From: an uncultured Pseudomonadota bacterium
GTDB taxonomy: Bacteria; Myxococcota_A; Polyangia; Fen-1088
DNA length: 64,000 nucleotides
Assembly: GCA_963847705.1 (NCBI GenBank)
Contig: CAWKBC010000030.1
Coordinates: forward strand, 498,691-562,690
Direction of reading: 5' to 3'
The position numbers and the translations under genes were made by a program. Positions 29,017 through 63,556 of the stretch are shown piece by piece; the stretch's first letter is position 1, and every line of letters begins with the position of its first letter. A model generated the notes under the pieces. That model did no database searches, had not been told where the DNA came from, and worked only from the letters and a program-made list of their open reading frames with translations.

Positions 29017-29032
29017 TGCATCCTCCGTACCT
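29017..29032 (-). promoter_or_regulatory. Candidate sigma54 promoter (cpoB-like gene)
   Basis: AGGTACGGAGGATGCA, GG-N10-GC. Confidence 0.4.
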
Positions 29033-29203
29033 CTGCGGTGCGAGTAGGAGCGCCCGTCAGGATCACTTGGACGTCAAGAGAACGCTCAGTCCGCGCCGAC
29101 TCCGTTAAGTCTTTTGAAGCGGCGTCGGACAACGACAGACCCGGACCGGTCGCTGACGGGCGAGTGGTCTGGAAGAGAGGACGGCCTGGTGGCAAGGCCG
29201 AGT

Positions 29204-29219
29204 TGGATCGTCCCTTGCT
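29204..29219 (+). promoter_or_regulatory. Candidate sigma54 promoter, 12 nt before ATG
   Basis: TGGATCGTCCCTTGCT. Confidence 0.65.
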
Positions 29220-29231
29220 CGAATGCCAGAC

Positions 29232-29798
29232 ATGCGGCTGTTCCTTGTTCTTTGCGCCACCTGTCTGTACGCCGCGAGGGCGTGGGCCGCACCGGGGGCA
29301 CCCGCACCGTCCGTTCCGCCTCGCGGGTCGTTGGTCGACCCGACCTTCCCTCAGAGCCGATGGTTCCCGGGCCGACAATCGACCATCAGCCCGTCGCGCG
29401 ACACCCGCCCGGCCGCGGCCGATCCTCCCGCGACGTTGACAGAAGCCGACTTCAACTCGTGCAGAAAGCCCGCCTCTGAAAAGCGGGTCGTCCAGGTGCC
29501 CCTCAAGCCTGACACCGACGTGGAGCATCTCGTCGTCTGGATCTCGTCCATCACCTGCAAGGCCTTCGTGTGGTCCGGGGCGATCGATGCAAGCAGGAAG
29601 CGGGTCACCGTCTCTGTGCCCAGCCTCGTCACGCCCAAGCAAGCATTCCGGCTGTTCTTGGACGCGCTCAATTCCGTCGGACTGACCGTCCTACCGTCGG
29701 GCAGCTTCTATCAAGTCATCGAGTCCGTCAGGGCGAAGACGAAGCCGATTCCGCTTTACGGCTGGAACGGTCATCCTCTCACTGCGACACGCCCTTAG
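29232..29798 (+). CDS. Secreted protein consisting of a stand-alone GspD-like N0 domain
   Basis: Signal peptide; LKPDTDVEHLVVWISSITCKAF...VTPKQAFRLFLDALNSVGLTV; no secretin domain. Confidence 0.65.
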   Translation: MRLFLVLCATCLYAARAWAAPGAPAPSVPPRGSLVDPTFPQSRWFPGRQSTISPSRDTRPAAADPPATLTEADFNSCRKPASEKRVVQVPLKPDTDVEHLVVWISSITCKAFVWSGAIDASRKRVTVSVPSLVTPKQAFRLFLDALNSVGLTVLPSGSFYQVIESVRAKTKPIPLYGWNGHPLTATRP

Positions 29799-29827
29799 CG
29801 CCAACGGTCGGCCTGTCCCGGCCGTCA

Positions 29828-31711: not shown

Positions 31712-31966
31712 CTCTACAAGGTAAGGTCTGCGGACCGCTCGCGACCTGGGGGGACGACCCGACCTTGCCCGCTACCAGAAGCGATCATTCTGAAGGACGG
31801 GTAGGGCGGGCATAGCGCCCGATCGTGCGCCGCCGTCGGCGGCCGACCTGATGGGGCCAGCGGTGGACGGGCAGGTGTCGTTTACAAATTGCCCGATACA
31901 TATGGCGGCGAACAGAATCCTTCCACCTCGTCGCGACGAAAGTGGCAATCGCGGGCCCCGGCAGCA

Positions 31967-31982
31967 CGGCGCGGAACATGCA
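31967..31982 (+). promoter_or_regulatory. Candidate sigma54 promoter
   Basis: CGGCGCGGAACATGCA, about 60 nt upstream of the lipoprotein ATG. Confidence 0.4.
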
Positions 31983-32040
31983 GCGGGCCAGGCCACCCAT
32001 CCGCACGACGCGAGGTGGTGTGAGACCAGGGAGAGCATCC

Positions 32041-32337
32041 ATGAAAACGATGATGTGTTTGGGAGTCTTGGCCATGCTCGTCGGCTGCGTTGCTTCCAAG
32101 GCGGAGCTCGATTCGACCAAAGCGACACTGACCAACGTCACCCGGGAACGAGACGAGCTGAAAGCTCAGGTCGCCACGCTGCAACAGCAGCTCACGATCA
32201 CGCAGGGGGATCTCGCGAAAGAGAAAGCGGCTGAAACCGCCTCTCCTGACAAGTCCGGGAAAGCGGCGATGGCCTCCAAGACCACGACAAGTGGAGCCTC
32301 AACGACTTCCAAAAATAAGCGCGCCCACAAGTCGTAG
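32041..32337 (+). CDS. Small coiled-coil lipoprotein
   Basis: LVGC lipobox, heptad region, basic tail; GGAG RBS. Confidence 0.7.
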   Translation: MKTMMCLGVLAMLVGCVASKAELDSTKATLTNVTRERDELKAQVATLQQQLTITQGDLAKEKAAETASPDKSGKAAMASKTTTSGASTTSKNKRAHKS

Positions 32338-33261: not shown

Positions 33262-33311
33262 ATTGCAAGGCTCGCGCGGAGCGGACGGTGGCCGAGAGGA
33301 TGGGGGGACGC

Positions 33312-45108: not shown

Positions 45109-45124
45109 GGGCACGAGGTCTGCA
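45109..45124 (+). promoter_or_regulatory. Candidate sigma54 promoter
   Basis: GGGCACGAGGTCTGCA, 15 nt before the in-frame GTG. Confidence 0.55.
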
Positions 45125-46027: not shown

Positions 46028-47242
46028 ATGCGCGCACGCGCGACGGCCCTCCTGTCCACTGTCGCTCTGCTCGCCGGGATCGGCTGCGCGTCGACGCCGA
46101 AGCCCAAGGAGATCGTGGCGCTCGAGGATCTGCGGTCCAACCCGACGCTGTCGGACCCGGATCGGCAGGCGTTCGATCTCCTGGCGGCCGCCGACGGGTT
46201 GTTGGTTCTGGCGTCGCGGGAATGGGAGGGACGGGACCCGGTCGCGGCCCGGCGGGACGCGCTCATGGGGCAGATCAAGATGAAGACCGCCCTGGCGCTT
46301 CTGGAGGCGGAGCGGACCCGGGCCAAGGTGGCCGAGCTCGACGAGGAGCTGGCCATCTCGCGCGAGGAAGAGGAGCGACTCGACGCCGAGCTGGCAACCG
46401 CCCAGGAGGAGACCGATCTGCTGGAGCGACTCCGGGCGGTGAAGCAGGCCTCGGCAGCTCAAAAGAAGGCGCTCTCCGAAGCGATGGACAGCGCCAGGAA
46501 GCAGGCCGCCACGGAGCGACAACGGTTGACGGAGCAGCTCTCCGGTGAAAAGAGAAAGGCCCAGGCGCTGGACGGAATTCGGGTCGTCGAGCTGACTCTC
46601 AAGATCGCGGAGACCGTCGACGCTCCTCACTACGCCCAGGCAAAATATGTCGCGGCGACCGGCATGCTCCAGGACGCGCACAAGGAGTTCGACGCTGGTC
46701 ACTGGGACGAGTCGGCCGCCCGCTCGACCTTGGCCCAAGCAGAGGCAGAAGGTGGGATTGCGATTGCCCGGCCGCAGTACGAGAAAGCGGCGCAGGCGAT
46801 GAGCAATCGCGCGCGGGATCGCGAGCTCGAGAACGACGCGACCTCCATTGCGGGCGTGCAGACCAGGTTGGAGCGTGAAGGGGATCTCCAGCGGCTGGTG
46901 CTGGTCTTCCACGGCCTCTTCGCGGACAGGCAGGCGGCGCTGCGGCCGGAGGGGGCGAAGACTCTCGGCGAGGTCAAGGACCTCCTGAACAAATACCCGA
47001 CCTATCCGCTGCAACTCACCGTCTTCACCGAAGGCCAGGACAAGCAGGACGATCTGGTGGCGCGCTCGCTTGCCCGCGCCAACGCGGTGTTTTGGGCGCT
47101 GGTGGGGCAGGGCGTAGATCCCAAGCGCATGAGCGTCGACGGCAAGGGCTCGCCAAGCCCGAGCGCCGACAGCTCAGCGACCGCCCACGTCACCGAAAAC
47201 GCCCGCGTCGAGCTCTCGGTCCTGTACCACGGCACCGAGTGA
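46028..47242 (+). CDS. Coiled-coil lipoprotein with degenerate OmpA-like C-terminal domain
   Basis: GIGC lipobox; SLARANAV...GVDPKRM...NARVEL. Confidence 0.8.
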   Translation: MRARATALLSTVALLAGIGCASTPKPKEIVALEDLRSNPTLSDPDRQAFDLLAAADGLLVLASREWEGRDPVAARRDALMGQIKMKTALALLEAERTRAKVAELDEELAISREEEERLDAELATAQEETDLLERLRAVKQASAAQKKALSEAMDSARKQAATERQRLTEQLSGEKRKAQALDGIRVVELTLKIAETVDAPHYAQAKYVAATGMLQDAHKEFDAGHWDESAARSTLAQAEAEGGIAIARPQYEKAAQAMSNRARDRELENDATSIAGVQTRLEREGDLQRLVLVFHGLFADRQAALRPEGAKTLGEVKDLLNKYPTYPLQLTVFTEGQDKQDDLVARSLARANAVFWALVGQGVDPKRMSVDGKGSPSPSADSSATAHVTENARVELSVLYHGTE

Positions 47243-47654: not shown

Positions 47655-48716
47655 TCAGTAATCGAAGCTGAAGTCGTTGTCTGGATCCGTCTTGAAGCGA
47701 TCCAAAAATGGCGAATAGGTTTGAACAGCCACCCGATGCTCAGCCGGGCTGAACCGCATGAGGCGGAGGTAACCGCCGCCGCCCAGCGGCTCCATCTGAA
47801 AGTTGGCCAGGAGCTGATGGACCGGCGCGCCCTCAGGGCGCGTGCTGGTCAGACGGCCGACGCCGTCTTCCAGATCGTGGCCGCACAGCACGAACAGGAT
47901 GTTGTCGTTGTCGCGGATCAACTTTCGCCAGATCTCTTCGCCGTCGTTCACGCTGCCTGGAACCCGATCGTCCAGATAGACGTGGGGATTCCAGAGCTGG
48001 TCCGGACGCGTCCGATGGTCGTAGCGGGTGTCGTCGGAGTAAAGGTACGCGTGAGTGACCACGATCGTCGGCGCCGACGGGTGTTGCTTCACGATTCCGT
48101 TTGCCCACGTGAGGACGGCGTCCCGTGGCCCGAATTCCAGCGACAGAATGAGCCAGGGGCCGCCGGGGGCGTCGATGAGCTGGAAGCTGTTCTCGATGTG
48201 GTTCGGCTCGAACGTTCCGCCGAACGACGGCATCGCGGCGAAGGTCGAGGCAGGGAAGTAGCGGTTGATCAGACTGTTCCGGCTGACCAGGTTCCCGTTT
48301 CTGGAATAGTCGTGATTTCCTGAGGTCACCATGTAGGGCACCACACCATCCAGGAGATGGAGACTCCCGGACGCCGACGCCCACTGTTCGGGCTCGTCCT
48401 CGTCGACGATGTCACCCTCGTGGACCACCAGGGCAACCTCGGCCGAGCCTTGCTGGTCGACGATCCATTGCGATTGAGCCCGAAGGATCTCCGGATGGGC
48501 GGCGGCGTAGTACTGGGTGTCGGGCAGCGCGACGATCGTGAAGTCGCTCTGACGACGGAGCTCGCACCCTCCGGTCACCGCCACGCAGCCGAGAGCCAGC
48601 GACAAGAAAACGAACAGCCGAGGCCCGATCGTTGCGTGTCGCCACGATGGCGCGGGAGCAGGTGGACGACAAAGCCGCGGAACATCGCGGTTTCCCGTCG
48701 TTGGGGGCGGACGCAT
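47655..48716 (-). CDS. Calcineurin-like metallophosphoesterase lipoprotein
   Basis: DTQ, HEGDIVD, GNHD, THAY, GHD motifs; TGGC lipobox. Confidence 0.85.
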   Translation of the reverse strand: MRPPPTTGNRDVPRLCRPPAPAPSWRHATIGPRLFVFLSLALGCVAVTGGCELRRQSDFTIVALPDTQYYAAAHPEILRAQSQWIVDQQGSAEVALVVHEGDIVDEDEPEQWASASGSLHLLDGVVPYMVTSGNHDYSRNGNLVSRNSLINRYFPASTFAAMPSFGGTFEPNHIENSFQLIDAPGGPWLILSLEFGPRDAVLTWANGIVKQHPSAPTIVVTHAYLYSDDTRYDHRTRPDQLWNPHVYLDDRVPGSVNDGEEIWRKLIRDNDNILFVLCGHDLEDGVGRLTSTRPEGAPVHQLLANFQMEPLGGGGYLRLMRFSPAEHRVAVQTYSPFLDRFKTDPDNDFSFDY

Positions 48717-48729
48717 CGCGGGGTGGCCT

Positions 48730-48745
48730 AGCAAAGGCCGATCCA
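48730..48745 (-). promoter_or_regulatory. Candidate sigma54 promoter, 13 nt before ATG
   Basis: TGGATCGGCCTTTGCT. Confidence 0.65.
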
Positions 48746-48818: not shown

Positions 48819-50345
48819 TCACCGCTGCGTCGTCGCTGGAGGTGGTCCTCCCGCAGCCTGAGCGATCGCGCCGCTCGGGCCGCCCCGGGTGGCGAGCGCC
48901 GCCGTCCCTGAGGGGGCTGCAGGCGTCACGAAGAGATCGGCGAAGTGAACCACGCTCGTGCTGGACTGGGGAGCCAGCTTCTCGGTGATCTCTTCGATCG
49001 ACTGCACCGTGTCGCCGCGAGAGGCGGTGGTTCGGGCAAAGGCCTTGCCCAAGTGAGCGATGTGGTCGGATGATTGTCTCGACTGCGATCCGATCTCGCG
49101 TGCCTTTTTCAGCTCAGCATAGGAAACCGCGTCGCCGGCCATTTCATCGAGGGCCCGCCTGAGCTGAGCCTGGACGTCGGGAAGCAGCGCAGCCCACGGG
49201 TAGTCCTTGAGACCGCGGGACGCTCCGACCCATATCGGTCCCGGTGTGCCGGGATTTGACGGCCCGCCGGTCGCGCCGCTTCCGATCACCAGGAAGGGAT
49301 CGGAGCTGAGGGGAAAGTCCCTCGGGAACAGAGAGAAGAGAAGCATTCCATCCGGTCGCGCCCTGATGTTCGCAACCAGCCCTCCGAACGGAAAGAACAG
49401 CTCCTCCAGCGTCCCCAGCGCCGCGTGGAGTTTCTCCCGCGCCCCATCGAGGGCAACGAGGTCCTCCGGAGGCTCGCGCGGCGACCGCTTGAGGGTGGTC
49501 ATCAGGTCGCGCACCTGGTCGATCCCGATGACGACGTTCAACGCGCTCCCCTGGCTGTAGCCAGCGTGAAAGATTCCCACCAATTCGTATTCGCCGGTGG
49601 CGCGCGACACCGCCAGCACGGGGGAGCCCGAATTGCCCGAGGAGAGCAGGGCGTCGACCACGAAGTCATCGTGGTCCCAGTCGCCGTAGTCGTCGTGATC
49701 GTGCGCGGAAATGACCTTGCCGACGTTCGTCGCGCGGAACGCCCCCAGGGGAAAGCCGCGAACCTCGACCACATTCCGCTCTCGGAGGTCGGCGCTGCGG
49801 CCGACCTTCCAGGGCATGACCTGAAGCGGCGCGTGCGCTCGCAGGATCGCGACGTCCAGCTGCGGGTCCGTGACCACCACCGTCGCCGGCACGTCGTCGC
49901 GCGCGTACTCATCGTGCTCGTTGTCGACCAGCGCCAGGGTCTGCGAGACCAACTTGCAACCGGCCGGAACACCGTCGACCAGGTGACCCGCGTCCGTCAC
50001 GCTCGGCCAGGCCGCCACGTGGTCGTTGGTGAGCAGCAAGGTGTCGTTCGCCTGACGCTGGTAGGCGAAAGCCGTTCCATGCAAGACCGATCTCTGCCTG
50101 CTTCGGCGAATCGCGCCGTCGGCGGCATAGGACAGACACTCGTAAACGGCGGTGTTTCGAGCGCAATAGGAGAAGACCGACTCGGGGTGGTCGTCGTAAT
50201 TCTGTGTCCGGGCCGACAGCGCCGAGAAGTCATCGGCGTAGGCCCCGGTGTAGGCACCAGCCGGGCCGGTCTGCCCGAACGCGGCAGGCGCCGCGAACGT
50301 CAGGACCAAGCAGGCCAAAGTCGTCAATGCCCGACGCTCGGTCAT
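48819..50345 (-). CDS. Secreted trypsin-like (S1) serine protease with C-terminal extension
   Basis: LTNDHV, QLDVAIL and SGNSGSPV triad; signal peptide. Confidence 0.85.
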   Translation of the reverse strand: MTERRALTTLACLVLTFAAPAAFGQTGPAGAYTGAYADDFSALSARTQNYDDHPESVFSYCARNTAVYECLSYAADGAIRRSRQRSVLHGTAFAYQRQANDTLLLTNDHVAAWPSVTDAGHLVDGVPAGCKLVSQTLALVDNEHDEYARDDVPATVVVTDPQLDVAILRAHAPLQVMPWKVGRSADLRERNVVEVRGFPLGAFRATNVGKVISAHDHDDYGDWDHDDFVVDALLSSGNSGSPVLAVSRATGEYELVGIFHAGYSQGSALNVVIGIDQVRDLMTTLKRSPREPPEDLVALDGAREKLHAALGTLEELFFPFGGLVANIRARPDGMLLFSLFPRDFPLSSDPFLVIGSGATGGPSNPGTPGPIWVGASRGLKDYPWAALLPDVQAQLRRALDEMAGDAVSYAELKKAREIGSQSRQSSDHIAHLGKAFARTTASRGDTVQSIEEITEKLAPQSSTSVVHFADLFVTPAAPSGTAALATRGGPSGAIAQAAGGPPPATTQR

Positions 50346-50357: not shown

Positions 50358-50373
50358 TGCATCGGCTGTGCCT
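50358..50373 (-). promoter_or_regulatory. Candidate sigma54 promoter, 12 nt before ATG
   Basis: AGGCACAGCCGATGCA. Confidence 0.6.
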
Positions 50374-50705
50374 GGCTATCCCGTCGCCAGCCGGCGTGCG
50401 GCCACGGGGCGGCCGTCAACGAACTGTACGGTCTACACCCGTGCCGTCAGATCTCTCAGCGGTACTGAAACCACCACGTTCGAGAGCGTTCCCCGTTGTG
50501 AGTGCCGATGAAATGTGACTATGTTCACGACGCCAGAAAAGCCGACGGATTGAGTTGAAGACGATTCCAGATGACCGCGCATTTTTCGTCAGAGCGTGCG
50601 TCGACCGACTGGAGACGCTCGATCCACGAAATCTCTGCAGGAGAGCAGACCAGCCGTTTGGATTCATCGCGGCGACATTCGCCATCCTGAGACGCATTCT
50701 GCTCG

Positions 50706-53618: not shown

Positions 53619-53870
53619 TCAGTGAACCTCGACGAAGGTCCAAAACTGACTGCGCAAGGCCTGCAACCGCTCGAAGGACTCATGGGCGCTGATCGACACC
53701 AGATATTGGACCTTCGAGAGCAAGGTCGCCTGCTCGCGGCTCATGAGGAGCTCGGTCGAGGGCTGCACGACTGGCCGCGCGCGTTCGCCCTCCCACATGA
53801 CGTGGCCGACGACGATGAAGTCGCCGACGTCCTTCTGGCGGGGATGAAAGCGCGCCTCCAACATCCGCAC
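53619..53870 (-). CDS. Small unknown protein, paralog A
   Basis: Aligns end to end with 60400-60678; GTG start 12 nt after a sigma54 motif (alternative ATGs at 53864 and 53894). Confidence 0.7.
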   Translation of the reverse strand: MRMLEARFHPRQKDVGDFIVVGHVMWEGERARPVVQPSTELLMSREQATLLSKVQYLVSISAHESFERLQALRSQFWTFVEVH

Positions 53871-53882: not shown

Positions 53883-53898
53883 AGCAAGAGTCATGCCC
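53883..53898 (-). promoter_or_regulatory. Candidate sigma54 promoter
   Basis: GGGCATGACTCTTGCT. Confidence 0.6.
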
Positions 53899-54145: not shown

Positions 54146-54919
54146 TCATTGAACCTGGAAGGGAATCTTGATCTCCGCCAGCTGTTCGCCATGTTGTTCG
54201 TCGTCGATATCGGCACGAAAGGTCAGTCGGCGTTCGCGTTTGGTCGCATCTTCGAAGTAGAGAAAGCCGGAGATCTCGCCGCCATCCGCGAGGACGCCTT
54301 CGGGGAGCCCCATGCGCCGCATGGCGCGAGTCGGAAGACCGTTCCCCCAGCGCCGGTACTGCTGGTTGGAGAACGCTTCGTCACGCTCCAGCGGGTGAGG
54401 CCACGCGGCCAGTGTGGGGTAGATGTCGTGGTATCGGGGCGCCACGAAGAAGTTCGAGGCGGCGTAGATAGGCTCGATCGTGCCAACCCCTTCGACGGGT
54501 GGCTGGTGATCCAATGGCACGATCGGGATGGCCCGATAGACGTGTCCGTGCCCCCCGACCAGGGTGAACTGCTGGTACTCGATACGCGCAGGGAGGCCGC
54601 TGTGGTTGACGATTCGAACCTTCACTGGCGTCAAGCGGGCGGAGAGATCCGCAGGGGCGGCGTTCCAGTCGTCCCCGTCGGCGGAGATCCTGACCCCTTG
54701 ACCCTCGGCGGCCGCGGCTTCAGGAGCACCAGGAATTGTGTGCGCGGAGGCCGCGGGCAACATTCGTCCCTGTGCGCACGAGGCAGCCGACAGACTGAGA
54801 ACTGACAAGAAGACGAACGCCCGGCCGCCGATCGTCTGGTTGCTACCCGGCGTTTCGAACGAGCAGGAACGGCAACTGCCCAGGAAACCGCGATCTCGCT
54901 TCGTCGGTGGCAGACGCAT
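54146..54919 (-). CDS. Hypothetical lipoprotein
   Basis: AASC lipobox; LPEGVL..GGEISGFLYF. Confidence 0.7.
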   Translation of the reverse strand: MRLPPTKRDRGFLGSCRSCSFETPGSNQTIGGRAFVFLSVLSLSAASCAQGRMLPAASAHTIPGAPEAAAAEGQGVRISADGDDWNAAPADLSARLTPVKVRIVNHSGLPARIEYQQFTLVGGHGHVYRAIPIVPLDHQPPVEGVGTIEPIYAASNFFVAPRYHDIYPTLAAWPHPLERDEAFSNQQYRRWGNGLPTRAMRRMGLPEGVLADGGEISGFLYFEDATKRERRLTFRADIDDEQHGEQLAEIKIPFQVQ

Positions 54920-54931
54920 GTCCGGGGCACG

Positions 54932-54947
54932 AGCAAACGGCGATCCA
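54932..54947 (-). promoter_or_regulatory. Candidate sigma54 promoter, 12 nt before ATG
   Basis: TGGATCGCCGTTTGCT. Confidence 0.65.
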
Positions 54948-55423
54948 ACCCACGGGGACGGTCCCTCTTCCCTTGCATCCTCGTCATCGAGCCCGAGGTC
55001 GTCGCCAACATGGCGCTACCTCGAGCATGGGTCGTACCCGGCGAAGCGACGGGCAGTCGCGGCGTCCGGGAGACGACCGTCAGGAACGTGCTCGGTCCGC
55101 GCCATCGCCGCTGCGGTTGGAAGTGACGACGGGGCTGGGACTCGGACTCTTTTTTTTGAGACCCGGAAACCTCGCGGGCGGCAGGGAAGCGTCAGTGTGA
55201 GTCCCGAACAAGAGCCAAGCAAAACCGAGAAGAATCGAACCGCGTTCCGCCCAGCGCCAGAAGACCCCGGTCACATCACTTCTCACGCGCGCCAAGCGCT
55301 TGAGCAGCCTTCGTCTGCGAGCTCGCCCCATCGTCGTGTCCCGGCTCAATCTTCTGCACAACACATTCCAAAGCCGGAGGGCGATTCGGTGGCGTCCGGG
55401 CCCCGATGGCACGCGGGCCGGCG

Positions 55424-55714: not shown

Positions 55715-55718
55715 CTCC

Positions 55719-56963
55719 ATGCATCGAGTTGCCCTCTCCCTTCTGACGCACGGGCTGCGCTGGCAGGACGCGGTCGATGTGCTGGTGCTCACGGCGCTCT
55801 TCTCATGGGCCTACAGGTGGCTCAGGCACACCATCGCGGTTCAGGTGGCCTTGGGTCTGGTGACCCTCTTGGCTGTGTCATGGACTGCCAGCCACCTCGG
55901 CCTCATTCTCACGTCGTACCTCCTGTCTGCCGTCAGCGCCGTCGCCACCATCGTCGTCGTGGTGGTGTTTCAACACGAGATTCGACGGGGTCTGAGCCGC
56001 GTCAGCCCACTCAGCTGGCTGACGAGATCAACGGTCGGTGACCGCTTCGATGACACCGATGGCGTCGTCGCCAGGGCAGCCTTTGCGCTGGCCGCGCGGC
56101 GAAAGGGTGCCCTCATCGTGTTGCCTCGCCGCGATGCCATCTTCGATCTCGTGACGAAGGGGACGATCCTCGACGCGCGCATCTCGGTCGAGATGATCGA
56201 GGCCATCTTCACGGGGACCTCTCCTCTACACGATGGCGCGGTCGTCATTGCCGCAGACCGGCTGGCACGGGCGGGCGTGGTGTTGCCGCTGGCGACCGGA
56301 ACGGAGGATCCGAGCTTCGGCACGCGGCACCGGGCTGCGATTGGGCTGGCTCAGGCTTCCGACGCGTTGATCGTTTGCGTGAGCGAGGAGCGGGGGACGG
56401 TCCACCTGGCCGTGGGCAATGCGATGAACCTGATCCGGGACCAGGGGCACCTTCGAGACATGCTGGTGAGGTCCCGACCCCCACTCCCGTCGGCGCTTCC
56501 CCGACCTGGGGCCCGGCGTCGGGAGAGCCTGGCCAGCCAGTGGCCGCATCTGGTGATCTTCGGAGGTGTGTTGGCCGCCTGGGCGGCGCTGGCGCTCGAC
56601 CGATCGCACGCGATCACGCGCGTCGTGCCGCTCGAGATTCGGGGTGTGAGCGACGGCCTGGTCTTCGACCCGCCTCGTTACACCAGCGTCGCGGTGGAGT
56701 TGCGGAGCTCGCGGCGCGAGCTGGAGGTGCTGCCACCCGACTCCGTGGGCGCCTTCGTCGACCTGGCCGGCACGAACGTCGGCACGCATACCTATCGAAT
56801 CGTCACCACCGCCCCGGCTGGCATCGAGGTCGTGAGCGAGACGCCCTCCAGCATGGAGCTGGAGATCCGAGCCCGCGTGCCGACCAATCCGTCGTCAGGC
56901 CGTCGCGCCTCGGAATCGACGCCCGATGCCCGACCCAAGTCCCCGATCGCCTCGCGTCGCTGA
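55719..56963 (+). CDS. cdaA: Membrane diadenylate cyclase (CdaA) fused to a YbbR-like domain
   Basis: Three N-terminal TM helices, FQHEIRRGL, SPLHDGAV, GTRHRAA, VSEERG; further TM then YbbR-like AFVDL domain. Confidence 0.88.
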   Translation: MHRVALSLLTHGLRWQDAVDVLVLTALFSWAYRWLRHTIAVQVALGLVTLLAVSWTASHLGLILTSYLLSAVSAVATIVVVVVFQHEIRRGLSRVSPLSWLTRSTVGDRFDDTDGVVARAAFALAARRKGALIVLPRRDAIFDLVTKGTILDARISVEMIEAIFTGTSPLHDGAVVIAADRLARAGVVLPLATGTEDPSFGTRHRAAIGLAQASDALIVCVSEERGTVHLAVGNAMNLIRDQGHLRDMLVRSRPPLPSALPRPGARRRESLASQWPHLVIFGGVLAAWAALALDRSHAITRVVPLEIRGVSDGLVFDPPRYTSVAVELRSSRRELEVLPPDSVGAFVDLAGTNVGTHTYRIVTTAPAGIEVVSETPSSMELEIRARVPTNPSSGRRASESTPDARPKSPIASRR

Positions 56964-56987
56964 CCGAACCATCCGCAGGCCAATCCT

Positions 56988-59699
56988 TCAGCCTTGGGCT
57001 TTGGCGCTGAGCCTCCTGGCCGAGCGCCTGACGGCCACGCGCTCCAGCACGTTGGCGGCCAACGCGGTCCAGCCTGTCTGGTGGCTGGCGCCGAGCCCCC
57101 GACCGGTGTCGCCATCGAAGTATTCGTGAAAGAGGAGCAGATTCTGCCCATGCGGGTCGATCCGATAGAGGGGGGCGTCGCCCAGGCAGGGTCGTCGTCC
57201 CGTTTTGTCGGTCAGGAACAGTCCGGCAATCCGACGCTCCAACTCTTCGGCCACCTCGAGCAGCGTGAGCCGATGACCCGATCCCGTCGGACACTCCACG
57301 CGCAGCGAATCCCCGTAGAAGTGGTGGTGGCGCTTCAGCGCTTCGATGAGGAGATAGTTGAGCGGCATCCACACGGGACCACGCCAGTTCGAATTTCCGC
57401 CGAACAGCGCGCTGTCGGACTCCGCGGGCGCGTAGCGGATCTCGTAGCGCTCCCCTCCCAGCTCCAGAGCGTAGGGTTGGTCCTTGTAGACTCGGGAGAG
57501 TGAGCGAATGCCGTGCGGTGACAGAAATTCTTTCTCGTCGAGCATGTAACGCAGAACGCGTTCGAGGCGGTCGCGGGAAGGGACTGCCAGCAAGCGGCGG
57601 GCCGAGTCGCCTTGGCGGGTGACGCCGATGCTCCTGGCGAGCTCGGGCTTGTTGGTCAAGAACCACTCTAGACGCCGCCCGAAGTGGGGCAATCGCCGGA
57701 GGCGGTCGTCGTCGAGGGATTCGGCGGCGAGGATAGGAATGAGTCCGACCGCGGAGCGGATTCGCAAGGGGACGATGCGACCGTCGACCCGCGCGTGGTC
57801 GTAATAGAAGCCGTCCTCCTCGTCCCAGAGGCCCTTGCCACCGAGGTCATTCGCAGCCTGGACAATCGCCGCGAAGTGCTCGAAGAACTTGGACGCGATG
57901 TCGGCGTAGGCGCCGTTGTCCCGGGAGAGCTCGAGGGCGATCGCCAGCATCGTCGTGCAGTAGAAGGCCATCCAGGCGGTGGCGTCTGCCTGCTCCAGGT
58001 GGGCGACGCCCGGGATGGGTTTCGAGCGATCGAAGAGGCCGATGTTGTCGAGCCCGAGAAAGCCACCCGCGAAGAGATTGTTGCCGTTGAGGTCCTCGCG
58101 ATTGACCCACCAGGTGAAGTTCACCAGGCACTTGTGAAACGCGGCCTCCAGAAAGCGGAGGTCGCGGCCGAATCCACCTTGCTCCGAGAGCTGATAGACG
58201 CGCCAGGCGGCCCAGGCGTGCAGCGGTGGATTCGCATTGCCAAAGTCGAACTCGTACGCGGGTAGCTGTCCGCTCGGGTCCATGAACCATTCGCGGCCGA
58301 GCAAGATGACCTGCCGCTTCGCGAGTGCCGGATCGAGACGTGCCAGCGCCACGCAGTGGAAGGCCAGATCCCAGTCGGCGAACCAGGGATACTCCCACTT
58401 GTCGGGCATCGAGATGACGTCCCGGGCGTAAAGGTGCTTCCAGTTCCGGTTGCGGCCGCCGAGGCGTTCCTCGGGGGGCGTTGGCTCGCCCGGATCTCCT
58501 TGCAACCAGTGCTCGACGACGTAACCGTAGAATTGCCTCGACCAGAGGAGGCCCGCGTCCGCCTGTCGCGCCACGAGGCGCTCCTCCGGCGTCAGCTCCG
58601 CGGTGCGGTGGGATAGGTTGAACTGTTCGGCCTCCGCCCTGCGCAGGTCGAACAGCGCGTCGAACCCCGGGCCGAATGGTTGCTCGGGCATCTCGGTCTC
58701 CGCGCTCAGGCGGCAGCGAATCACCTGCTGCTCGCCCGGCGCGACCGTGAACGCGTACCAGGCCGCGGCCTTGGTACCGAACCCGTCGGGATTCACCGCT
58801 CCCCTCTCGCCCCTGACGACGCGCCGATGGAACGCGTCCTTCACCCAGGCGGAGCGGTTGCTGGCTCCGTAGAGACGCTCGGCATTTGTCTCATTGTCCG
58901 TGAACAGGAGCTCGGGGAGCGCGCTGGCGACGGTGTCGAAGGCGAGCAGCTGCCGTCCCAGGGTGGCATGCTCTGACCTCAATCGTCCGGGACCCGCCCG
59001 ATCGATTCGACCCTTTGGCCAGTAGCCTTCCCCTTGCCGGCCCCACGCCCAGCTGTTTCGATGCCACAGCGTGGGCAGCAGGTGCAGCGCAGCGGGGTCG
59101 GGGCCTCGATTCGCGCAGGTGATTCGAATCAGGATGTCGTCGGGCCCGGCCTTCGCGTACTCGACGAAGACATCGAAATACCGACCCCCGTCGAAGATAC
59201 CGGTGTCGTCTATTTCGAACTCGGCGTCTCCCCGTCCGCGACGGGCGTTCTCGGCGACGAGTCGGTCGTAGGGAAACGCCCGATGCGGGTACTTGTAAAG
59301 AGCCCTCAGATACGACGACGTCGGGGTGGCATCGAGGTAATAGTAGAGCTCCTTGACGTCTTCGCCGTGATTCCCCTCGGGGCCCGAGAGGCCGAACATT
59401 CGCTCTTTCAGGATCGAATCCTGGCCGTTCCACAGGGCGATTGAAAAACAGACCCGGCACTCGCGATCGGTGAGGCCGAGCAGTCCGTCCTCGCCCCAGC
59501 GGTAGGCGCGGCTGCGGGCATGATCGTGGGGCAGGTAGGTCCAGCAATCGCCGTCCGCCGAATAGTCTTCTCTGACCGTGCCCCACTGTCGTTCGGCCAG
59601 ATAGGGACCCCAGCGCTTCCAATTTTTCTGTCGCGCGGCATCCTCGGCGAGGCGCTGGCGCTCCGGATCCTTGGCGCTCCCGTTGTCGAGCGAGCTCAT
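56988..59699 (-). CDS. GH63-like (MGH1) glucosidase
   Basis: WGPYLAERQWGTVREDYS, SMPDKWEYPW, GGNSNWRGPVW, GASHQTGWT. Confidence 0.9.
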   Translation of the reverse strand: MSSLDNGSAKDPERQRLAEDAARQKNWKRWGPYLAERQWGTVREDYSADGDCWTYLPHDHARSRAYRWGEDGLLGLTDRECRVCFSIALWNGQDSILKERMFGLSGPEGNHGEDVKELYYYLDATPTSSYLRALYKYPHRAFPYDRLVAENARRGRGDAEFEIDDTGIFDGGRYFDVFVEYAKAGPDDILIRITCANRGPDPAALHLLPTLWHRNSWAWGRQGEGYWPKGRIDRAGPGRLRSEHATLGRQLLAFDTVASALPELLFTDNETNAERLYGASNRSAWVKDAFHRRVVRGERGAVNPDGFGTKAAAWYAFTVAPGEQQVIRCRLSAETEMPEQPFGPGFDALFDLRRAEAEQFNLSHRTAELTPEERLVARQADAGLLWSRQFYGYVVEHWLQGDPGEPTPPEERLGGRNRNWKHLYARDVISMPDKWEYPWFADWDLAFHCVALARLDPALAKRQVILLGREWFMDPSGQLPAYEFDFGNANPPLHAWAAWRVYQLSEQGGFGRDLRFLEAAFHKCLVNFTWWVNREDLNGNNLFAGGFLGLDNIGLFDRSKPIPGVAHLEQADATAWMAFYCTTMLAIALELSRDNGAYADIASKFFEHFAAIVQAANDLGGKGLWDEEDGFYYDHARVDGRIVPLRIRSAVGLIPILAAESLDDDRLRRLPHFGRRLEWFLTNKPELARSIGVTRQGDSARRLLAVPSRDRLERVLRYMLDEKEFLSPHGIRSLSRVYKDQPYALELGGERYEIRYAPAESDSALFGGNSNWRGPVWMPLNYLLIEALKRHHHFYGDSLRVECPTGSGHRLTLLEVAEELERRIAGLFLTDKTGRRPCLGDAPLYRIDPHGQNLLLFHEYFDGDTGRGLGASHQTGWTALAANVLERVAVRRSARRLSAKAQG

Positions 59700-59784
59700 T
59701 GTTGGCCGGCGAACGTCACAGCAGGTGCTCCGCGTCGATCTCCCTGGGCTCCTCGTGCTCGGTCACGCTTGGTGGTCGCACAGG

Positions 59785-60021: not shown

Positions 60022-60365
60022 GGACCCAAGGTACGCACGAAACGTCGATGGAGTAATCGACGGCCCAAAACTGCGATCCAGGGTGGATGAGGGAGGGGCA
60101 GAGCGGCCATGTCAGGGAATCCCCGAGAGCGGCGGAGGCGATTCGAACTGAACGTTCAATTTGTCGCGAGGCGTGTCTCGGCGTGCCGGCCCATACCGTC
60201 AGCCACTGTCAGCTACTTTTAGACCAGGGCCAGGCCAAGCGAGCCAGCCGCTTGGAAGCGGCGACCGCGGATCCGCTGCGTAAATAAATTCACCAGTCCG
60301 GCCCGGACGCGCACAGTCCTTTACCAGTACGCCCCGCGCCTGGTCAGCCGAGAACGGGAGCCGGG

Positions 60366-60381
60366 GGGCATGCCCCTTGCA
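60366..60381 (+). promoter_or_regulatory. Candidate sigma54 promoter for the paralog B-pal unit
   Basis: GGGCATGCCCCTTGCA. Confidence 0.6.
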
Positions 60382-60399
60382 CCACCACCAGGGCTTCTC

Positions 60400-60678
60400 A
60401 TGCAGGTCCCAGAGGCTCGATTCCACGGCAAAAGGAAGGACTGCGGCAGCTTCATCGTCGTCGGCCACGTTGTGTGGGACGGCGAGCAGGCGTGGCCGGT
60501 CGTTCCGCCGTCGACCGAGTTGCTGCTGCGCGACGAGCCGGCCACGCTCCTCTCCAAGCTGCGGTCCCTGGTGTCGGTCAGTGGCCGGGAGTCGTTCCGG
60601 CCGTTGCAGGTCTGGCCAAGCCAGTTTTGGTCGTTCGTCGAGGTCAACATGGTCTCATCTTCGGGAGGTTCGACATGA
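60400..60678 (+). CDS. Small unknown protein, paralog B
   Basis: EARFH...FIVVGHVVWDGE..PSTELL...SQFWSFVEV shared with paralog A; stop overlaps the pal ATG. Confidence 0.7.
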   Translation: MQVPEARFHGKRKDCGSFIVVGHVVWDGEQAWPVVPPSTELLLRDEPATLLSKLRSLVSVSGRESFRPLQVWPSQFWSFVEVNMVSSSGGST

Positions 60679-61196
60679 GCAGCGCGCGGTCTATGGGTGT
60701 TCCTGCATTGGGTCTTTGGGCCGCCATCGCTGGGCTCACCGGCCTCGACTGCTCGCATGAGCAGAAGGCCCCCGCCGTTCACCCTTCTCAGCCCATGGCG
60801 GCCCAGGCTCCGCCGCACCGCGAGCGGCCGAGTGAGGTCCAGACCGCGAACGACGGGCCCAAGGACAAGGAAGAGCCGGTGGTCTTCTTCGACTTCGATT
60901 CGTACACGCTCCGCGGAGAAGCGCATCCGGTGTTGCAAAAGGTCGCTGAGAAGATGCGGGGTCAAGCGGCCGAGAAGCTTCAGATCGAGGGAAACTGCGA
61001 TGACCAGGGGACCATCGAGTACAACCTGGCGCTCGGGGAGGAGCGGGCCCGCGCGGCCAAGAGCTACCTCGTCCACCTGGGTGTCCCGGACTCCCGCATC
61101 GCCACCGTCAGCTACGGCTCGCAGCGGCCCAAATACCAGGGTCATGACGACGACGCTCGCGCCAAAAATCGTCGCGATGACCTCGTGGTGCGCTAG
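60675..61196 (+). CDS. pal: Pal/OmpA-family peptidoglycan-associated lipoprotein
   Basis: FFDFDS, IEGNCDDQGTIEYNLALGEERA, SYGSQRP, KNRRD. Confidence 0.85.
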   Translation: MSSARSMGVPALGLWAAIAGLTGLDCSHEQKAPAVHPSQPMAAQAPPHRERPSEVQTANDGPKDKEEPVVFFDFDSYTLRGEAHPVLQKVAEKMRGQAAEKLQIEGNCDDQGTIEYNLALGEERARAAKSYLVHLGVPDSRIATVSYGSQRPKYQGHDDDARAKNRRDDLVVR

Positions 61197-61222
61197 GACC
61201 AAAGCGCGGTCATACTGCGACC

Positions 61223-61434
61223 ATGCGCAGATCGCGGTCCGCGGCGCTCTCGGCCCGCTTGGCCTTGGCGTCGGTGGGCACCGCGCTCGCGGTGGGTGTG
61301 GTCTGCGCGGTCGGGCTTTTTTCGCTCGGGAATTCCTCGGCGGTCTCCTCGAGCACGGGGGGCGCATCGTCGCCGCGAACCGTGTCGACCCGGGTGGCGC
61401 CCTCTTCGAAATACAGATTCCGGTGGTGCGTTGA
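61223..61434 (+). pseudogene. Sensor histidine kinase remnant (N-terminal TM joined out of frame to HATPase C-terminus)
   Basis: MRRSRSAALSARLALASVGTALAVGVV then LEHGGRIVAANRVDPGGALFEIQIPVVR*, stop overlapping the regulator TTG. Confidence 0.65.
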
Positions 61435-62789
61435 GCGCGGCCGTCTTGGTGGTGGATGACGAGGCTCTGATCCGTCAATCGGTTCAGGCGCTGCTCTCGG
61501 GCGAGGGGCTCGACGTCACTTCTGCTGGATCAGGTGTCGAGGCCTGGGCACGCTTTCAGGAAGCGCGTCCCGACGTCGTGCTGCTGGATCTGGTGCTCGG
61601 GGACGCCGACGGCCTCGACATCTTGAAGCGGATGAAGCAAGAGGCGCCCGACACCAAGGTCATTCTGATCTCCGCCCATGGTTCGATCGAGAGCGCAGTG
61701 GCCGCGATGAAGCTGGGCGGATATGACTTCATCAAGAAGCCGTTCGAGCTGGAAGAGATCGTGGCCGCGGTCCGCAACGCCATCCGGACCAGCCGGCTGG
61801 AACACCGGGTCGCTTATCTGTCGGCGCAGGAACGGCGCAAAAGTGGCGGTACCTTTGTCTACGCGGCGCACCGAATGGAGCGCTTGCTCTCCCAGGTGGA
61901 AATGATCGCAAAGAGCCCCGTGGCTCTGGTCCTGGTGACCGGCGAGAGCGGCACCGGAAAACAGGCCATCGCGCGGATGCTCCACGAGGGGTCGGCGCGT
62001 TCCGGCGGCCCGTTCGTGGAGCTGAACTGCTCGGCGATTCCTGAGAATCTGGTCGAAAGCGAGCTCTTCGGCCACGAACGGGGCGCCTTTTCCGATGCCC
62101 GTGAACGCAAGCTGGGCCTGGTGGAGATTGCCGACGGCGGGACCCTCTTCCTCGACGAGATCGGAGATCTCTCCGGCGGAGCTCAAGCCAAGCTCTTGAC
62201 CTTTCTTGAACAACGCACCTTCCGGCGCGTAGGTGCGACGGCCGTAAGGCGGGTCGACGCCCGGATCGTCGCCGCCACCAATCGAGATCTGCCCGCCGCG
62301 GTCGCGGCCCGCACCTTCCGGGAGGATCTCTATTATCGGATCAACGCGATCACCGTGCACCTACCTCCGCTGCGGGAAAGGGCCCCCGACGTAGCGGTGC
62401 TGGCGGAGCACTTCTTGGCCGAAGCGGCTCGAGAATTCGGGCGCCGCTTTCAAGGCATCGCGCCGGAGACGATTGGGCTGCTCGAGCGTTACCCGTGGCC
62501 AGGGAACGTCCGCGAGCTTCGCGCCGTCATTTCTCGCGCCGCGCTCCTGCACGACGACGATCAGCTGCGCCCGGCTCAGCTGCCGTCCGAGCTGGTTGCG
62601 GCAGCGCTCGCGGCGCCGGCCAGGTCAGCGACCGCCCTGAATGGGGTTTCGGCGATCCCGACTCTCGAGGAGGTCGAGCTCGACCACATTCGGCGTGTAT
62701 TGGACATTTGTGGCGGCAACCGCACGCTCGCCGCCCAGCACCTTGGCATCACCCGGCAAACATTGTCGAAGAGAGTAGGCGGCGACTGA
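61431..62789 (+). CDS. NtrC/AtoC-family sigma54-dependent response regulator (REC-AAA+-Fis HTH)
   Basis: VVDDE, GESGTGK, ESELFGHERGAFSDA, LFLDEIG, WPGNVREL, HTH. Confidence 0.93.
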   Translation: MSAAVLVVDDEALIRQSVQALLSGEGLDVTSAGSGVEAWARFQEARPDVVLLDLVLGDADGLDILKRMKQEAPDTKVILISAHGSIESAVAAMKLGGYDFIKKPFELEEIVAAVRNAIRTSRLEHRVAYLSAQERRKSGGTFVYAAHRMERLLSQVEMIAKSPVALVLVTGESGTGKQAIARMLHEGSARSGGPFVELNCSAIPENLVESELFGHERGAFSDARERKLGLVEIADGGTLFLDEIGDLSGGAQAKLLTFLEQRTFRRVGATAVRRVDARIVAATNRDLPAAVAARTFREDLYYRINAITVHLPPLRERAPDVAVLAEHFLAEAAREFGRRFQGIAPETIGLLERYPWPGNVRELRAVISRAALLHDDDQLRPAQLPSELVAAALAAPARSATALNGVSAIPTLEEVELDHIRRVLDICGGNRTLAAQHLGITRQTLSKRVGGD

Positions 62790-63497
62790 TCTCCGGGCCC
62801 GGCCCCTTGCTGGGGACGGCCTCCGTCGAGCCGACCCTGGCGGGCCCGAAAGGCATCAGCATCCCCCACAGCGAGGCGAGACGAACGATGTCGGCGCTGG
62901 TGTGGACGGACAGTTTGCCGTTGATGTGGCCGCGGTGGGTCTCCACGGTCTTGACGCTGATGCCGAGACGCCCCGCGATCTGTTTGTTGGAGCTCCCCCA
63001 GACCACCAGATCGAAGATCTGACGCTCGCGCTGTGACAGGCGCTCGATCGGCTGCCCGACGCCATGGTGCTTGCTGCCCTCCGCATTTGCGGCTGGAGGG
63101 GGGAGACGCCCGGGGGCAATACCAGCTCACCCCTCCCCACGGCCCGCGTCGCGGCGATGATCTCCTCTGGCCGCTGTCCCTTGAGCGCATACCCCTTCGC
63201 ACCGGCGCGAATCGCCTGGTGCACGATCGCTTCCGGGCCATGGGGCGCGAGAAGCAGCACGCGCGCAGTGGGCGCGACGCGGCCCAACTCCCGCGCCAGG
63301 GCGATGCCGTTGCGATCGGGCAGGTGGAAGTCGGTGACGACCACATCGGGAGCAAGTCCAACGGCAAGCTCACAGGCATGATGCGCATCGCCGCACTCGG
63401 CGATGACACTCAGGTCAGCTCCCTCTGGCAGGTCAGCCAGAGTGGTGCGCACGCCGACCCGGAAGATCGTCGAAGAGTCCACCAGCAGTAACTTCAA
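62749..63497 (-). CDS. NarL/LuxR-family response regulator, frameshifted at a G6 run (63098-63103)
   Basis: REC domain (LLLVDSS, DFHLP, GYALK) and HTH (LSQRERQIF, ISVKTVETHR) in different frames. Confidence 0.8.
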
Positions 63498-63540
63498 CCG
63501 TCCTGGCTCCTTTCTGAACAGCGAATCGCCTTCGTCACGC

Positions 63541-63556
63541 TGCAAGGCCGATGCCG
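63541..63556 (-). promoter_or_regulatory. Candidate sigma54 promoter (luxR-type gene)
   Basis: CGGCATCGGCCTTGCA. Confidence 0.55.

Follow-up and report, generated by a model that had tools for sequence, protein, structure and literature searches.

In the genome of a Polyangia-like bacterium (a MAG), there is probably a class of start-proximal sigma54 promoters, in which the motif lies directly before the start codon and translation proceeds without a Shine-Dalgarno (SD) sequence, with the 64,000 nt stretch of DNA analysed here (the window) holding part of a likely envelope regulon. The motifs would be -24/-12 sigma54 promoters from which RNA begins at the start codon or 1-6 bases before it. 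Ribosomes would then load at the 5' end without an SD, by a route likely to be common to the host's many sigma70-type start-proximal genes, while an activator with a GAFSDA loop, encoded in an operon of small gene, Pal, kinase and activator, would bind a bipartite element at window promoters. We infer sigma54 binding, 5'-end ribosome loading and the cognate activator, and take the position of the transcription start site (TSS) by analogy from other species.

Start-proximal sigma54 motifs across the genome

The host encodes rpoN and many potential activators (43 strong PF00158 matches, 30 of them with G[AS][FY]TGA). As the first-pass annotation had suggested, the genome was scanned with a position weight matrix (PWM) and a histogram drawn of the distance from motif end to start codon, which showed the anticipated peak, beginning abruptly at 12 nt. 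When the PWM was held out by contig, ATG was observed 35 times at 12-16 nt against 7.5 expected (p 3e-13), and GTG 12 times at 12-13 nt against 2.3 expected. An untrained consensus, matching 75 sites, was followed at 12-13 nt by 14 ATG codons where 1.7 were expected, 12 of them opening at least 60 codons; unlike ATG, the triplets ATC, ACG and AAG were not raised at this distance. With the matrix used in-sample, non-coding sites numbered 189 versus 49-77 in spacer-shift controls, and ATG-initiated ORFs at 12-13 nt numbered 34 (with none at 11 nt) versus 0-3. An earlier PWM, for which distant sites had been the training set, learned little beyond its own seed.

Chance GG-N10-GC matches in DNA of 67% GC are a vanishingly improbable source of this pattern. 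A reversed-sequence control did give nearly the real count (343 versus 362 sites at 10 bits), meaning that raw motif counts at this threshold barely differ from chance and that the weight falls on the spacer-shift and distance tests alone; as CG is commoner than GC in this genome, the control was judged biased and was replaced by the spacer shifts. The flat spacer-shift controls and the held-out peak have already refuted a chance origin of the class, and conservation in four gene families likewise stands against it, although single weak sites are less secure, the weakest in the window (29032 and 31967) falling under 10 bits.

Genome-wide, 74 called genes have a start-proximal sigma54 motif, with starts taken from our own gene caller, which missed those at 29232, 54919 and 45140. 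At around one third of strong sigma54 sites the start is 12-16 nt away and lacks an SD. An SD 4-mer precedes 4 of the 74 genes versus 980 of 3130 genes (p 1e-7), and the 16S anti-SD is intact. GTG is the start codon in 19 of the 74, so the class does not take the strict AUG-only form of S. meliloti and C. jejuni. A large sigma70-type start-proximal class also exists, comprising 440 genes with TANNNT 6-9 nt before ATG, and the SD 4-mer is similarly scarce there (16 of 440); leaderless translation looks general in this genome. The suggestion that leaderlessness is peculiar to the window's cluster is not supported, as the sigma54 class is genome-wide and densest in a hypoxia-type island on another contig, and the sigma70-type class is much larger. 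A 'phylum-wide' occurrence was considered and dropped, the excess outside the taxonomic class being slight (466 versus 389; control distance on 80 of 121 genomes).

Published TSSs fall 9-12 nt past the motif: 12 nt for dctA and SMb20436 and 9 nt for glnB in S. meliloti (PMC3616915 Table S10), and 10 nt in four rows for B. japonicum (PMC4842269 Table S9). Leaders would therefore be about 0-3 nt; the textbook spacing of 10 nt gives leaders of 2-3 nt, or 3-6 nt where the start is at 15-16 nt, which are not strictly leaderless. Of the proposal of sigma54-driven leaderless mRNAs, what survives is 'leaderless or near-leaderless', as predicted from sequence. If the class is real, its fixed start edge offers a sequence-only estimate of the sigma54 +1 in uncultured myxobacteria.

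The edge also bears on whether the mRNAs are instead leadered, SD-less products of upstream promoters, with sigma54 holoenzyme acting as a repressor or roadblock on the 5' UTR or the motif serving another protein. Internal genes and read-through are possible, and 92 nt upstream of 54947 there is another sigma54-like site. However, hardly any start lies at 0-11 nt and numbers rise abruptly at 12 nt, as expected if a start cannot precede +1; the sigma70 class has the same edge, at 6 nt; activator-type dyads lie about 45-120 nt upstream; and the M. xanthus NmpR promoters described in PMC11841059 require the sigma54 site for expression, all of which makes this arrangement quite unlikely.

Promoters and genes of the window

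The ten GG-N10-GC motifs that the first-pass annotation placed upstream of genes at 29-64 kb are all present (Table 1), with GG at -24 and GC at -12 in the fixed spacing that marks a sigma54 promoter, and the five 16-mers it quoted each occur once, at the first base it gave. These five, four before ATG and one before GTG, do lie 12-13 nt from the start (12, 13, 12, 12 and 12 nt, in order of coordinate), while four of the other five genes appear to have longer leaders. Eight of the ten score above 10 bits with a PWM trained on the same genome, including some of these sites. The region at 1-27 kb, where no motifs had been noticed, indeed has none with a called start behind it, but contains two weak non-coding sites above 10 bits (11866 and 19380).

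Table 1. Features of the window; motifs on the minus strand are named in the text by their higher coordinate, and motif-to-start distances run from motif end to start codon
Feature	Position	Strand	Remarks
Sigma54-type motif	29017..29032	-	8.3 bits; before CpoB/YbgF-like TPR lipoprotein gene (ORF 28100-28987)
Bipartite element	29071..29118	+	E1 29071-29084, E2 29103-29118; pair score 23.5
Sigma54-type motif	29204..29219	+	12 nt before ATG 29232; copy of lipoprotein-operon promoter
Exported protein, GspD-like N0 domain	29232..29798	+
Weaker bipartite element copy	31878..31924	+	-89/-58; score 13.3, between background 95th and 99th percentile
Sigma54-type motif	31967..31982	+	9.8 bits; leadered, 58 nt to ATG 32041 of 98-aa lipoprotein
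Sigma54-type motif	45109..45124	+	15 nt before GTG 45140 (MlaC/HpnM-like protein); without bipartite element
Metallophosphoesterase lipoprotein	47655..48716	-
Sigma54-type motif	48730..48745	-	13 nt before ATG 48716
Sigma54-type motif	50358..50373	-	12 nt before ATG 50345 (exported trypsin-like protease, 48819-50345)
Bipartite element, inverted	50413..50459	+	-86/-53 to motif 50373; score 26.3
Sigma54-type motif	53883..53898	-	12 nt before GTG 53870 (83-aa protein)
Sigma54-type motif	54932..54947	-	12 nt before ATG 54919
Bipartite element	60278..60325	+	-88/-56; score 28.4, the genome's top pair
Sigma54-type motif	60366..60381	+	18 nt before ATG 60400, operon head
Operon	60400	+	Small gene (60400-60678), Pal-like (60795-61196), sensor kinase remnant, activator
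Sensor kinase remnant	61223..61434	+	Matches N- and C-terminal ends of intact paralogue on contig C44
NtrC-type response regulator/sigma54 activator, GAFSDA loop	61431..62789	+
Sigma54-type motif	63541..63556	-	Leadered, 43 nt to TTG 63497 of NarL-like response regulator
Bipartite element	63597..63647	-	-91/-56; score 17.5, gap 35

Behind motif 29032 the first in-frame start is a TTG at 29 nt, and the true start of that ORF is uncertain. Among the leadered genes, ATG 32041 is preceded by a purine-rich SD and TTG 63497 has SD-like purines upstream. The gene at 29232 is the second gene of the lipoprotein operon, with stop/start overlap, in eight relatives. Neither Pfam nor NCBIfam gave a match for the 83-aa protein, whose homologues use ATG at the codon that is GTG here, and the 257-aa lipoprotein starting at 54919 (54146-54919) had no family match.

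Spacing is preserved among orthologues, the main set of relatives being a single genus and not independent. In the small-protein (53870) family, 27 of 30 loci are at 12-16 nt, none of these 27 with an SD, and all five loci beyond the genus are at 13-19 nt; seven homologues start with TTG. Corresponding counts are 19 of 22 for the lipoprotein (54919) family at 12-20 nt (15 of the 19 at 12-14 nt), 9 of 16 for the protease (50345) at 12-14 nt, counting loci whose upstream DNA is present, and 9 of 19 phosphoesterase (48716) loci at 12-13 nt. By conservation, the proximal codon appears to be the true translation start.

The alternative is that the promoters are real and translation starts further downstream on mRNAs with ordinary leaders, with the codon at 12-13 nt reflecting only a pyrimidine-purine preference at +1. 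Consistent with this, the n-regions of the products from 48716 and 54919 would be unusually long (~33 aa), another ATG lies two codons after 53870, and the phosphoesterase has its own downstream ATG in some relatives. By contrast, enrichment is limited to ATG (and GTG) and does not extend to other A-initial triplets, 54919 orthologues with short canonical signal peptides begin exactly at the proximal codon, the N-terminus of the small protein is conserved from that codon on, and in two relatives upstream ORFs of unequal length both end on the downstream start, which leaves a downstream start very unlikely.

Over its first ~40 codons the 48716 gene shares homology with the 5' end of the 54919 gene, and in close relatives the matching piece is a separate upstream ORF. 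Among phosphoesterase loci it is fused in frame in five and forms an upstream ORF in two, with stop/start overlap with the real start. The TGGATCG variant, said to be shared by three unrelated genes, does not represent independent promoters, as all three descend from one cassette. GATC methylation as the basis of this variant -24 box was dropped (GATC observed/expected 1.01), and a riboswitch-like leader in the 5' cassette shared by 48716 and 54919 was rejected, since RNA folding gave no common structure. Clustering, a further claim of the original description, is visible but not significant after correction: the 29-64 kb stretch is second densest, with 7 start-proximal sites per 35 kb, a count reached in 12 of 975 sliding windows, 10 of which are in an island at 85-160 kb of contig C27. 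With the three cassette copies counted once and an out-of-frame site at 55039 dropped, four sites are left; at P 0.0023 per window, this number loses significance when 174 windows are considered.

A bipartite element and a kinase-activator operon

Computational footprinting revealed a putative bipartite enhancer (E1 + E2) at -86 to -91 of five window promoters (29032, 31967, 50373, 60366 and 63556); 29204 is a sixth, sharing the element at 29071, which is at -86 inverted relative to motif 29032 and at -133 forward relative to 29204. The element is also found at the conserved small gene-Pal-kinase-activator (GAFSDA) operon. The model was trained on relatives only, and the 99th percentile of background pair scores is 16.5. 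Four of the genome-wide top five matches are those at 60278, a C44 paralogue, 50413 and 29071. Totals were barely above shifted-gap controls at a threshold of 16 (23 versus 10-18), and 9 versus 1-5 at a threshold of 20. For the 50413 element, E1 occupies the same place in four orthologous loci and is forward at about -88 in two others. E2 is possibly an IHF-type site. A plain k-mer test of the ten promoters found no shared motif (best p 4e-7, null minimum 9e-7), footprinting later giving a degenerate one, and a literal search of this genome for the relatives' lipoprotein enhancer returned 0-2 unrelated matches.

The first-pass annotation had noted a sigma54 activator downstream of one motif; it is present at 61431, but with GAFSDA in place of GAFTGA. 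The same loop occurs in 20 of 20 loci. The T-to-S and G-to-D changes each occur among validated activators (PMC3162934); no report of a test of the double form was found. The window's kinase copy is broken, its middle missing with a junction near 61345. The 61431 product is likely to be the regulator of the bipartite element, and the putative enhancer shared by window promoters and the local operon makes a regulon likely.

The proposed 'regulon' therefore stands in that six of ten window promoters share an element tied to a conserved two-component operon, and falls in that this is not one leaderless programme. A single dedicated leaderless envelope/stress programme, with all ten genes under the local activator and selectively translated for want of leaders, would fit the second densest cluster, the element common to six promoters and targets that include Pal-like, CpoB-like, N0-domain and protease genes. 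Yet the element is absent here from 45109, 48745, 53898 and 54947, though present at the 53870 and 54919 genes of relatives; only 29204 and 50373 among the five promoters at 12-13 nt have it in this genome, while four of the six promoters that carry the element lie outside 12-13 nt and have predicted leaders longer than 5 nt. Most of the other 57 start-proximal promoters are without it, just 2 exceeding the 95th percentile for E1, and the sigma70-type proximal box in 440 genes is hard to reconcile with one programme, which is thus unlikely. Leaderless genes and the regulon are overlapping sets, and since leader length varies within the regulon, leaderlessness appears to be a lineage habit rather than regulon logic. 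The envelope bias originally described is mild genome-wide, with a hydrophobic N-terminus in 35 of 74 versus 1094 of 3130 (p 0.036, by a crude heuristic). If the reading holds, the enhancer and conserved kinase-activator operon constitute a named, testable candidate envelope regulon.

Relation to known sigma54 and leaderless systems

Known sigma54 -24/-12 promoters have the same GG-N10-GC geometry (PMC3616915; PMC3162934), matched here by rpoN and many activators, and, like the putative elements found here, their dyads or repeats lie about 45-130 nt upstream; a similar bias toward exported functions is described in PMC3162934. The strong S. meliloti examples examined, however, have 5' UTRs of about 50-160 nt, whereas around one third here would have a start within 12-16 nt. 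In a published analysis, sigma54 distances were in 100-nt bins, in which a 12-16 nt class could not show.

Leaderless mRNAs of the sigma70 type similarly have a promoter box directly before the start and no SD. In the accounts compared here, leaderless genes follow a -10 box, as in all 19 in C. jejuni (PMC3847290), or an extended -10 in B. japonicum (PMC4842269); further comparisons are C. crescentus (PMC4117421) and M. xanthus pexR, with predicted sigmaA (PMC12754779). The host class differs in that its -24/-12 box would depend on an ATP-driven activator, and in that GTG/TTG starts are common, whereas the S. meliloti leaderless TSSs described in PMC3616915 all begin with AUG. A literature search found no description of the sigma54 motif/start-codon pairing. 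If such a class holds across the lineage, leaderlessness follows ribosome habits, not the sigma factor, and activator-dependent genes can dispense with 5' UTR control. Gene finders restricted to SD or TANNNT models would misplace such starts and cut off signal peptides; our own caller missed or truncated several.

The C27 island has the same dyad enhancer as the M. xanthus NmpRSTU oxygen regulon (PMC11841059) and, by reading of its sequence, genes for a globin-like sensor kinase, an activator, an oxidase and USP, CBS and BON-type proteins. Using the NmpR consensus given for M. xanthus in that source, 17 sites were found to have a perfect dyad. The island holds 16 of these, and in 9 of the 16 the start follows at 12-13 nt. 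The NmpR-type GCA-N5-TGC dyad is at none of the ten window promoters and does not define the window's regulon. A wider proposal is only just probable: that in this Polyangia lineage about one third of sigma54 promoters start mRNA at or within a few bases of the start codon, among them most of an NmpR hypoxia regulon, together with part of a so far undescribed envelope regulon under a conserved GAFSDA activator and its bipartite enhancer, such that enhancer-driven activation is coupled to leaderless initiation tolerant of GUG/UUG and the promoter plus first codons is copied as a portable module. Unlike the 9 of 16 island promoters, the M. xanthus mxan_4236 reporter primer has an SD-like run before the ATG. 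In the M. xanthus Cappable-seq data tabulated for c-di-GMP genes (PMC8844925 Table S2), at least one TSS is at -1 (MXAN_1525; sigma factor not given).

Distance between sigma54-type motifs and start codons

The first-pass annotation had placed five GG-N10-GC motifs 12-13 nt ahead of start codons, and these motifs and spacings proved exact (see table), the distance d being the number of bases that separate the motif (16 nt, ending with the base that follows the -12 C) from the start codon. The genome-wide peak in this distance that it had anticipated was recovered with a position weight matrix trained on one half of the contigs and applied to the held-out remainder: start codons are concentrated at d 12-16, far above expectation, with 35 in-frame ATGs in this interval where 7.5 would be expected (p = 3e-13); GTGs at d 12-13 numbered 12, against an expectation of 2.3. 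With an in-sample matrix, 189 non-coding sites exceeded 12 bits, whereas 49-77 did so once the spacer was altered by 1-3 nt; ATG-initiated ORFs at d 12-13 fell from 34 to 0-3, and no such ORF was found at d = 11. An untrained consensus, matching 75 sites, likewise gave 14 ATGs at d 12-13 against 1.7; ATC, ACG and AAG were not raised at this distance. The pairing of motif and start codon is not a product of chance, and the start-proximal sigma54 motif is a genuine architecture, conserved and genome-wide in extent. Little weight attaches to any single weak site, as a reversed-sequence control at 10 bits approximately equalled the raw count (343 vs 362).

With the full matrix, 74 called genes (55 ATG, 19 GTG) have a motif at d 11-16, roughly 15-20 of them representing background, and a Shine-Dalgarno (SD) 4-mer precedes 4 of the 74, against 980 of 3130 other ATG genes. 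The excess of strong sigma54 sites is about 120, of which around 45, roughly a third, have an ATG at d 12-16. The host genome (6.1 Mb, 85% complete, 6% contaminated), in which the window occupies C30:498691-562690, has one rpoN copy and an intact 16S anti-SD, and of its 43 strong sigma54-activator domains 30 carry G[AS][FY]TGA; the closest matches to its RpoN DNA-binding domain are MAGs labelled Myxococcales, Polyangia and Haliangiales. Genes were called with a purpose-built hexamer model (5103 genes), in which start placement is rough and 29232, 54919 and 45140 are missed.

Sigma54-type motifs in the window, with distance to the start codon (d) and the E1+E2 upstream element
Motif	d (nt)	E1+E2 pair position	Pair score	Gene (start codon) or remark
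29032	29, uncertain	-86 to -91, inverted	23.5	
29204	12	-133, shared		N0-domain (29232)
31967	58	-86 to -91	13.3	SD-like purines present
45109	15	absent		
48745	13	absent		phosphoesterase (48716)
50373	12	-86 to -91, inverted	26.3	protease (50345)
53898	12	absent		small protein (53870)
54947	12	absent		lipoprotein (54919)
55024-55039 (-)	12		13.7, moderate	second sigma54-like motif, 92 nt upstream of 54947, before ATG of 126-codon ORF out of frame with lipoprotein; could be second promoter or chance
60366	18	-86 to -91	28.4	small protein (60400)
63556	43	-86 to -91	17.5	SD-like purines present

Proximal codons as starts and the predicted leader

Comparison of orthologues within the genus, which are kin and not independent, indicates that the proximal codons would be the real starts. 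In the small-protein family (53870 and 60400), the motif stands at d 12-16 of a codon aligned with the first residue at 27 of 30 loci (17 ATG, 3 GTG and 7 TTG, none with an SD), the remaining three having d = 23, a broken codon and no motif, respectively; outside the genus, d is 13-19 in 5/5 homologues counted by eye. Orthologues of lipoprotein 54919 with at least 44% identity carry the motif at d 12-20 at 19 of 22 loci and at d 12-14 at 15 of the 22, five loci having been scored by eye, and in several a short canonical lipoprotein signal begins at the motif-proximal ATG; the motif was not found at five more distant loci of this type (L132-L136, one within the host genome). For protease 50345, upstream DNA is present at 16 loci, and d is 12-14 at nine of these. 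Similarly, orthologues of phosphoesterase 48716 have the motif at d 12-13 at 9 of 19 loci: at five of these a GTG at that distance begins a long in-frame N-terminus, at two the ORF opened there (46 and 60 codons) terminates in overlap with the ATG of the enzyme itself, and at two it stops earlier. Three other phosphoesterase loci possess a TANNNT box in place of the sigma54 motif.

The small proteins (53619-53870 and 60400-60678) belong to an 80-90 aa family with no Pfam or NCBIfam match, which occurs in 23 of the 26 genomes of the genus and, among the class genomes sampled, in 8 of 151. The gene is nearly always first behind a start-proximal sigma54 motif, and seven homologues have a TTG start without an SD.

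In the available parts of the published TSS maps, the motif-to-TSS distance is 12 nt for dctA and SMb20436 and 9 nt for glnB, strong consensus promoters of S. meliloti (Table S10 of PMC3616915), 10 nt in four rows for B. japonicum (PMC4842269) and 8-13 nt in C. jejuni (PMC3847290). By analogy, the leader would measure 0-4 nt at d 12-13 and 3-7 nt at d 15-16. The sharp sigma54 edge at 12 nt parallels the 6-nt edge of TANNNT in the same genome (11, 116, 86, 72 and 64 boxes at 5-9 nt, respectively, for 3277 candidate ATGs), and suggests a +1 at or just before d = 12. Approximately 440 called genes form a sigma70-type start-proximal class, which makes translation with no leader, or with a short one, look general in this host; the TANNNT box 6-12 nt before the ompA-like start at 46028 is kept in 9/9 relatives. 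Within the window, TANNNT boxes lie 6-9 nt before an ATG at 3986, 15502, 15673, 19823, 24631, 46028 and 55719. On these sequence patterns, near-leaderless sigma54 transcription is quite probable.

No description of a sigma54 leaderless class was found in the available text of the leaderless and sigma54 literature, including that on Myxococcus and Deltaproteobacteria (PMC12754779, PMC3616915, PMC4842269, PMC5243855, PMC3847290, PMC7438776, PMC4117421, PMC8844925, PMC11841059, PMC3162934 and PMC12316311, in the last of which the word 'leaderless' is absent), and single cases may exist. S. meliloti SMc_ORF_18 is listed with a leaderless TSS and a weak predicted RpoN box without the GG (PMC3616915).

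A shared cassette and a bipartite upstream element

The TGGATCG variant had been described as common to three unrelated genes. The 7-nt variant with a TTGCT box occurs at only three sites in the genome, all inside the window, and these promoters are not independent, because a colinear cassette of ~135 nt, running from promoter to signal peptide, is common to 48716 and 54919, and 29232 has a copied, operon-derived promoter. The host lacks about 90 nt found in relatives G001 and G021, and its cassette forms an in-frame fusion with the phosphoesterase. In eight relatives, 29232 follows the lipoprotein gene as the second, overlapped gene, and it has its own promoter copy only in the host and G021. 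In L140 (G021), L138 (G003) and L139 (G001), the duplicated promoter-plus-signal-peptide cassette has turned into an upstream ORF ending on the phosphoesterase start, an arrangement of putative translational coupling; a single-base difference in G001 may be an assembly error. The stand-alone secretin-N0-like exported protein (29232-29798) and the unknown lipoprotein (54146-54919), encoded by one operon in the eight relatives, may be a pair of secretin accessory proteins.

When the ten window promoters were tested for shared exact words, nothing rose above the null. Footprinting of the relatives' lipoprotein and small-protein promoters identified a pair of conserved blocks separated by 31-32 nt, E1 at about -88 and E2 at about -56, the latter resembling an IHF site. 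Matrices built from the relatives only (17 and 13 sites) placed 60278, its paralogue on contig C44, 50413 and 29071 among the top five E1+E2 pairs of the host genome (background 95th percentile 8.0, 99th 16.5). A sigma54 site lies near 6 of 23 pairs above 16 bits, against 1 of 22 control pairs; among the 57 other start-proximal promoters, high E1 scores are limited to two.

Promoter 60366 heads an operon comprising the small gene, a Pal-like gene, a kinase and the NtrC-type activator encoded at 61431. Of the 19 relatives with an orthologue of this activator, 16 have it on the small gene's contig, at a distance of 2-4 kb. The activator loop is GAFSDA at 20/20 loci, each substitution being known from a validated activator (PMC3162934). 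The window's sensor kinase (61223-61434) has its middle deleted, and an intact paralogous operon with the same upstream element (G000:C44:28570-32375; 81-88% nucleotide identity) is either a duplicate or bin contamination. The operon likely encodes an autoregulated two-component system, with Pal-like, CpoB-like, N0-domain, protease and lipoprotein genes as predicted targets that would fit an envelope role. We lean towards part of the window being one enhancer-defined envelope regulon; the single dedicated leaderless programme originally proposed is improbable, the E1+E2 pair being missing at four of the ten promoters. Genes for a diadenylate cyclase (DisA_N/CdaA) and for an MGH1/GH63 glycoside hydrolase are situated inside the motif cluster at 55719-59699, near MscS and CLC channel genes, and hint at osmotic functions.

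Clustering and spread among genomes

The proposed clustering at 29-64 kb held in part: the window ranks second in start-proximal density, but called-gene clustering is not significant without an island on contig C27 (p = 0.11), the densest start-proximal cluster (85-160 kb, 11 per 35 kb). A GCA-N5-TGC dyad, matching the M. xanthus NmpR site in the available text of PMC11841059, is found at 9 of 14 start-proximal promoters there, against 9 of 900 in the background (p = 8e-14, compared with 2e-6 for the best among 15 null sets). Perfect dyads accompany 17 sigma54 sites in the genome, 16 of them in the island, nine of which have a start at d 12-13; the dyads give independent support to the view of start-proximal motifs as promoters equipped with enhancers. 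The region (G000:C27:85000-160000, outside the window) is an NmpRSTU-like hypoxia island in which the 16 perfect dyads have near-helical offsets. By inspection of translations, it harbours a globin-like sensor kinase gene (125602-126783), an activator (122382-123776), USP, CBS, BON, cytochrome bd, PEP synthase and a second F-type ATPase operon.

A survey of 80 of 121 genomes with one strict pattern, comparing d 12-13 with d 24-25, gave 17 vs 2 in the host, 177 vs 85 in 14 class members (11 up, 3 down) and 466 vs 389 in 65 other genomes (36 up, 23 down). Only 8 of the 80 had p < 0.01, and the trait is patchy among genomes. One gene family present three times in the host (C1:177314, C27:349685 and C34:25199) carries the same sigma54-like motif at each copy, 11-13 nt ahead of an in-frame GTG, and looks like a repeated or mobile element.
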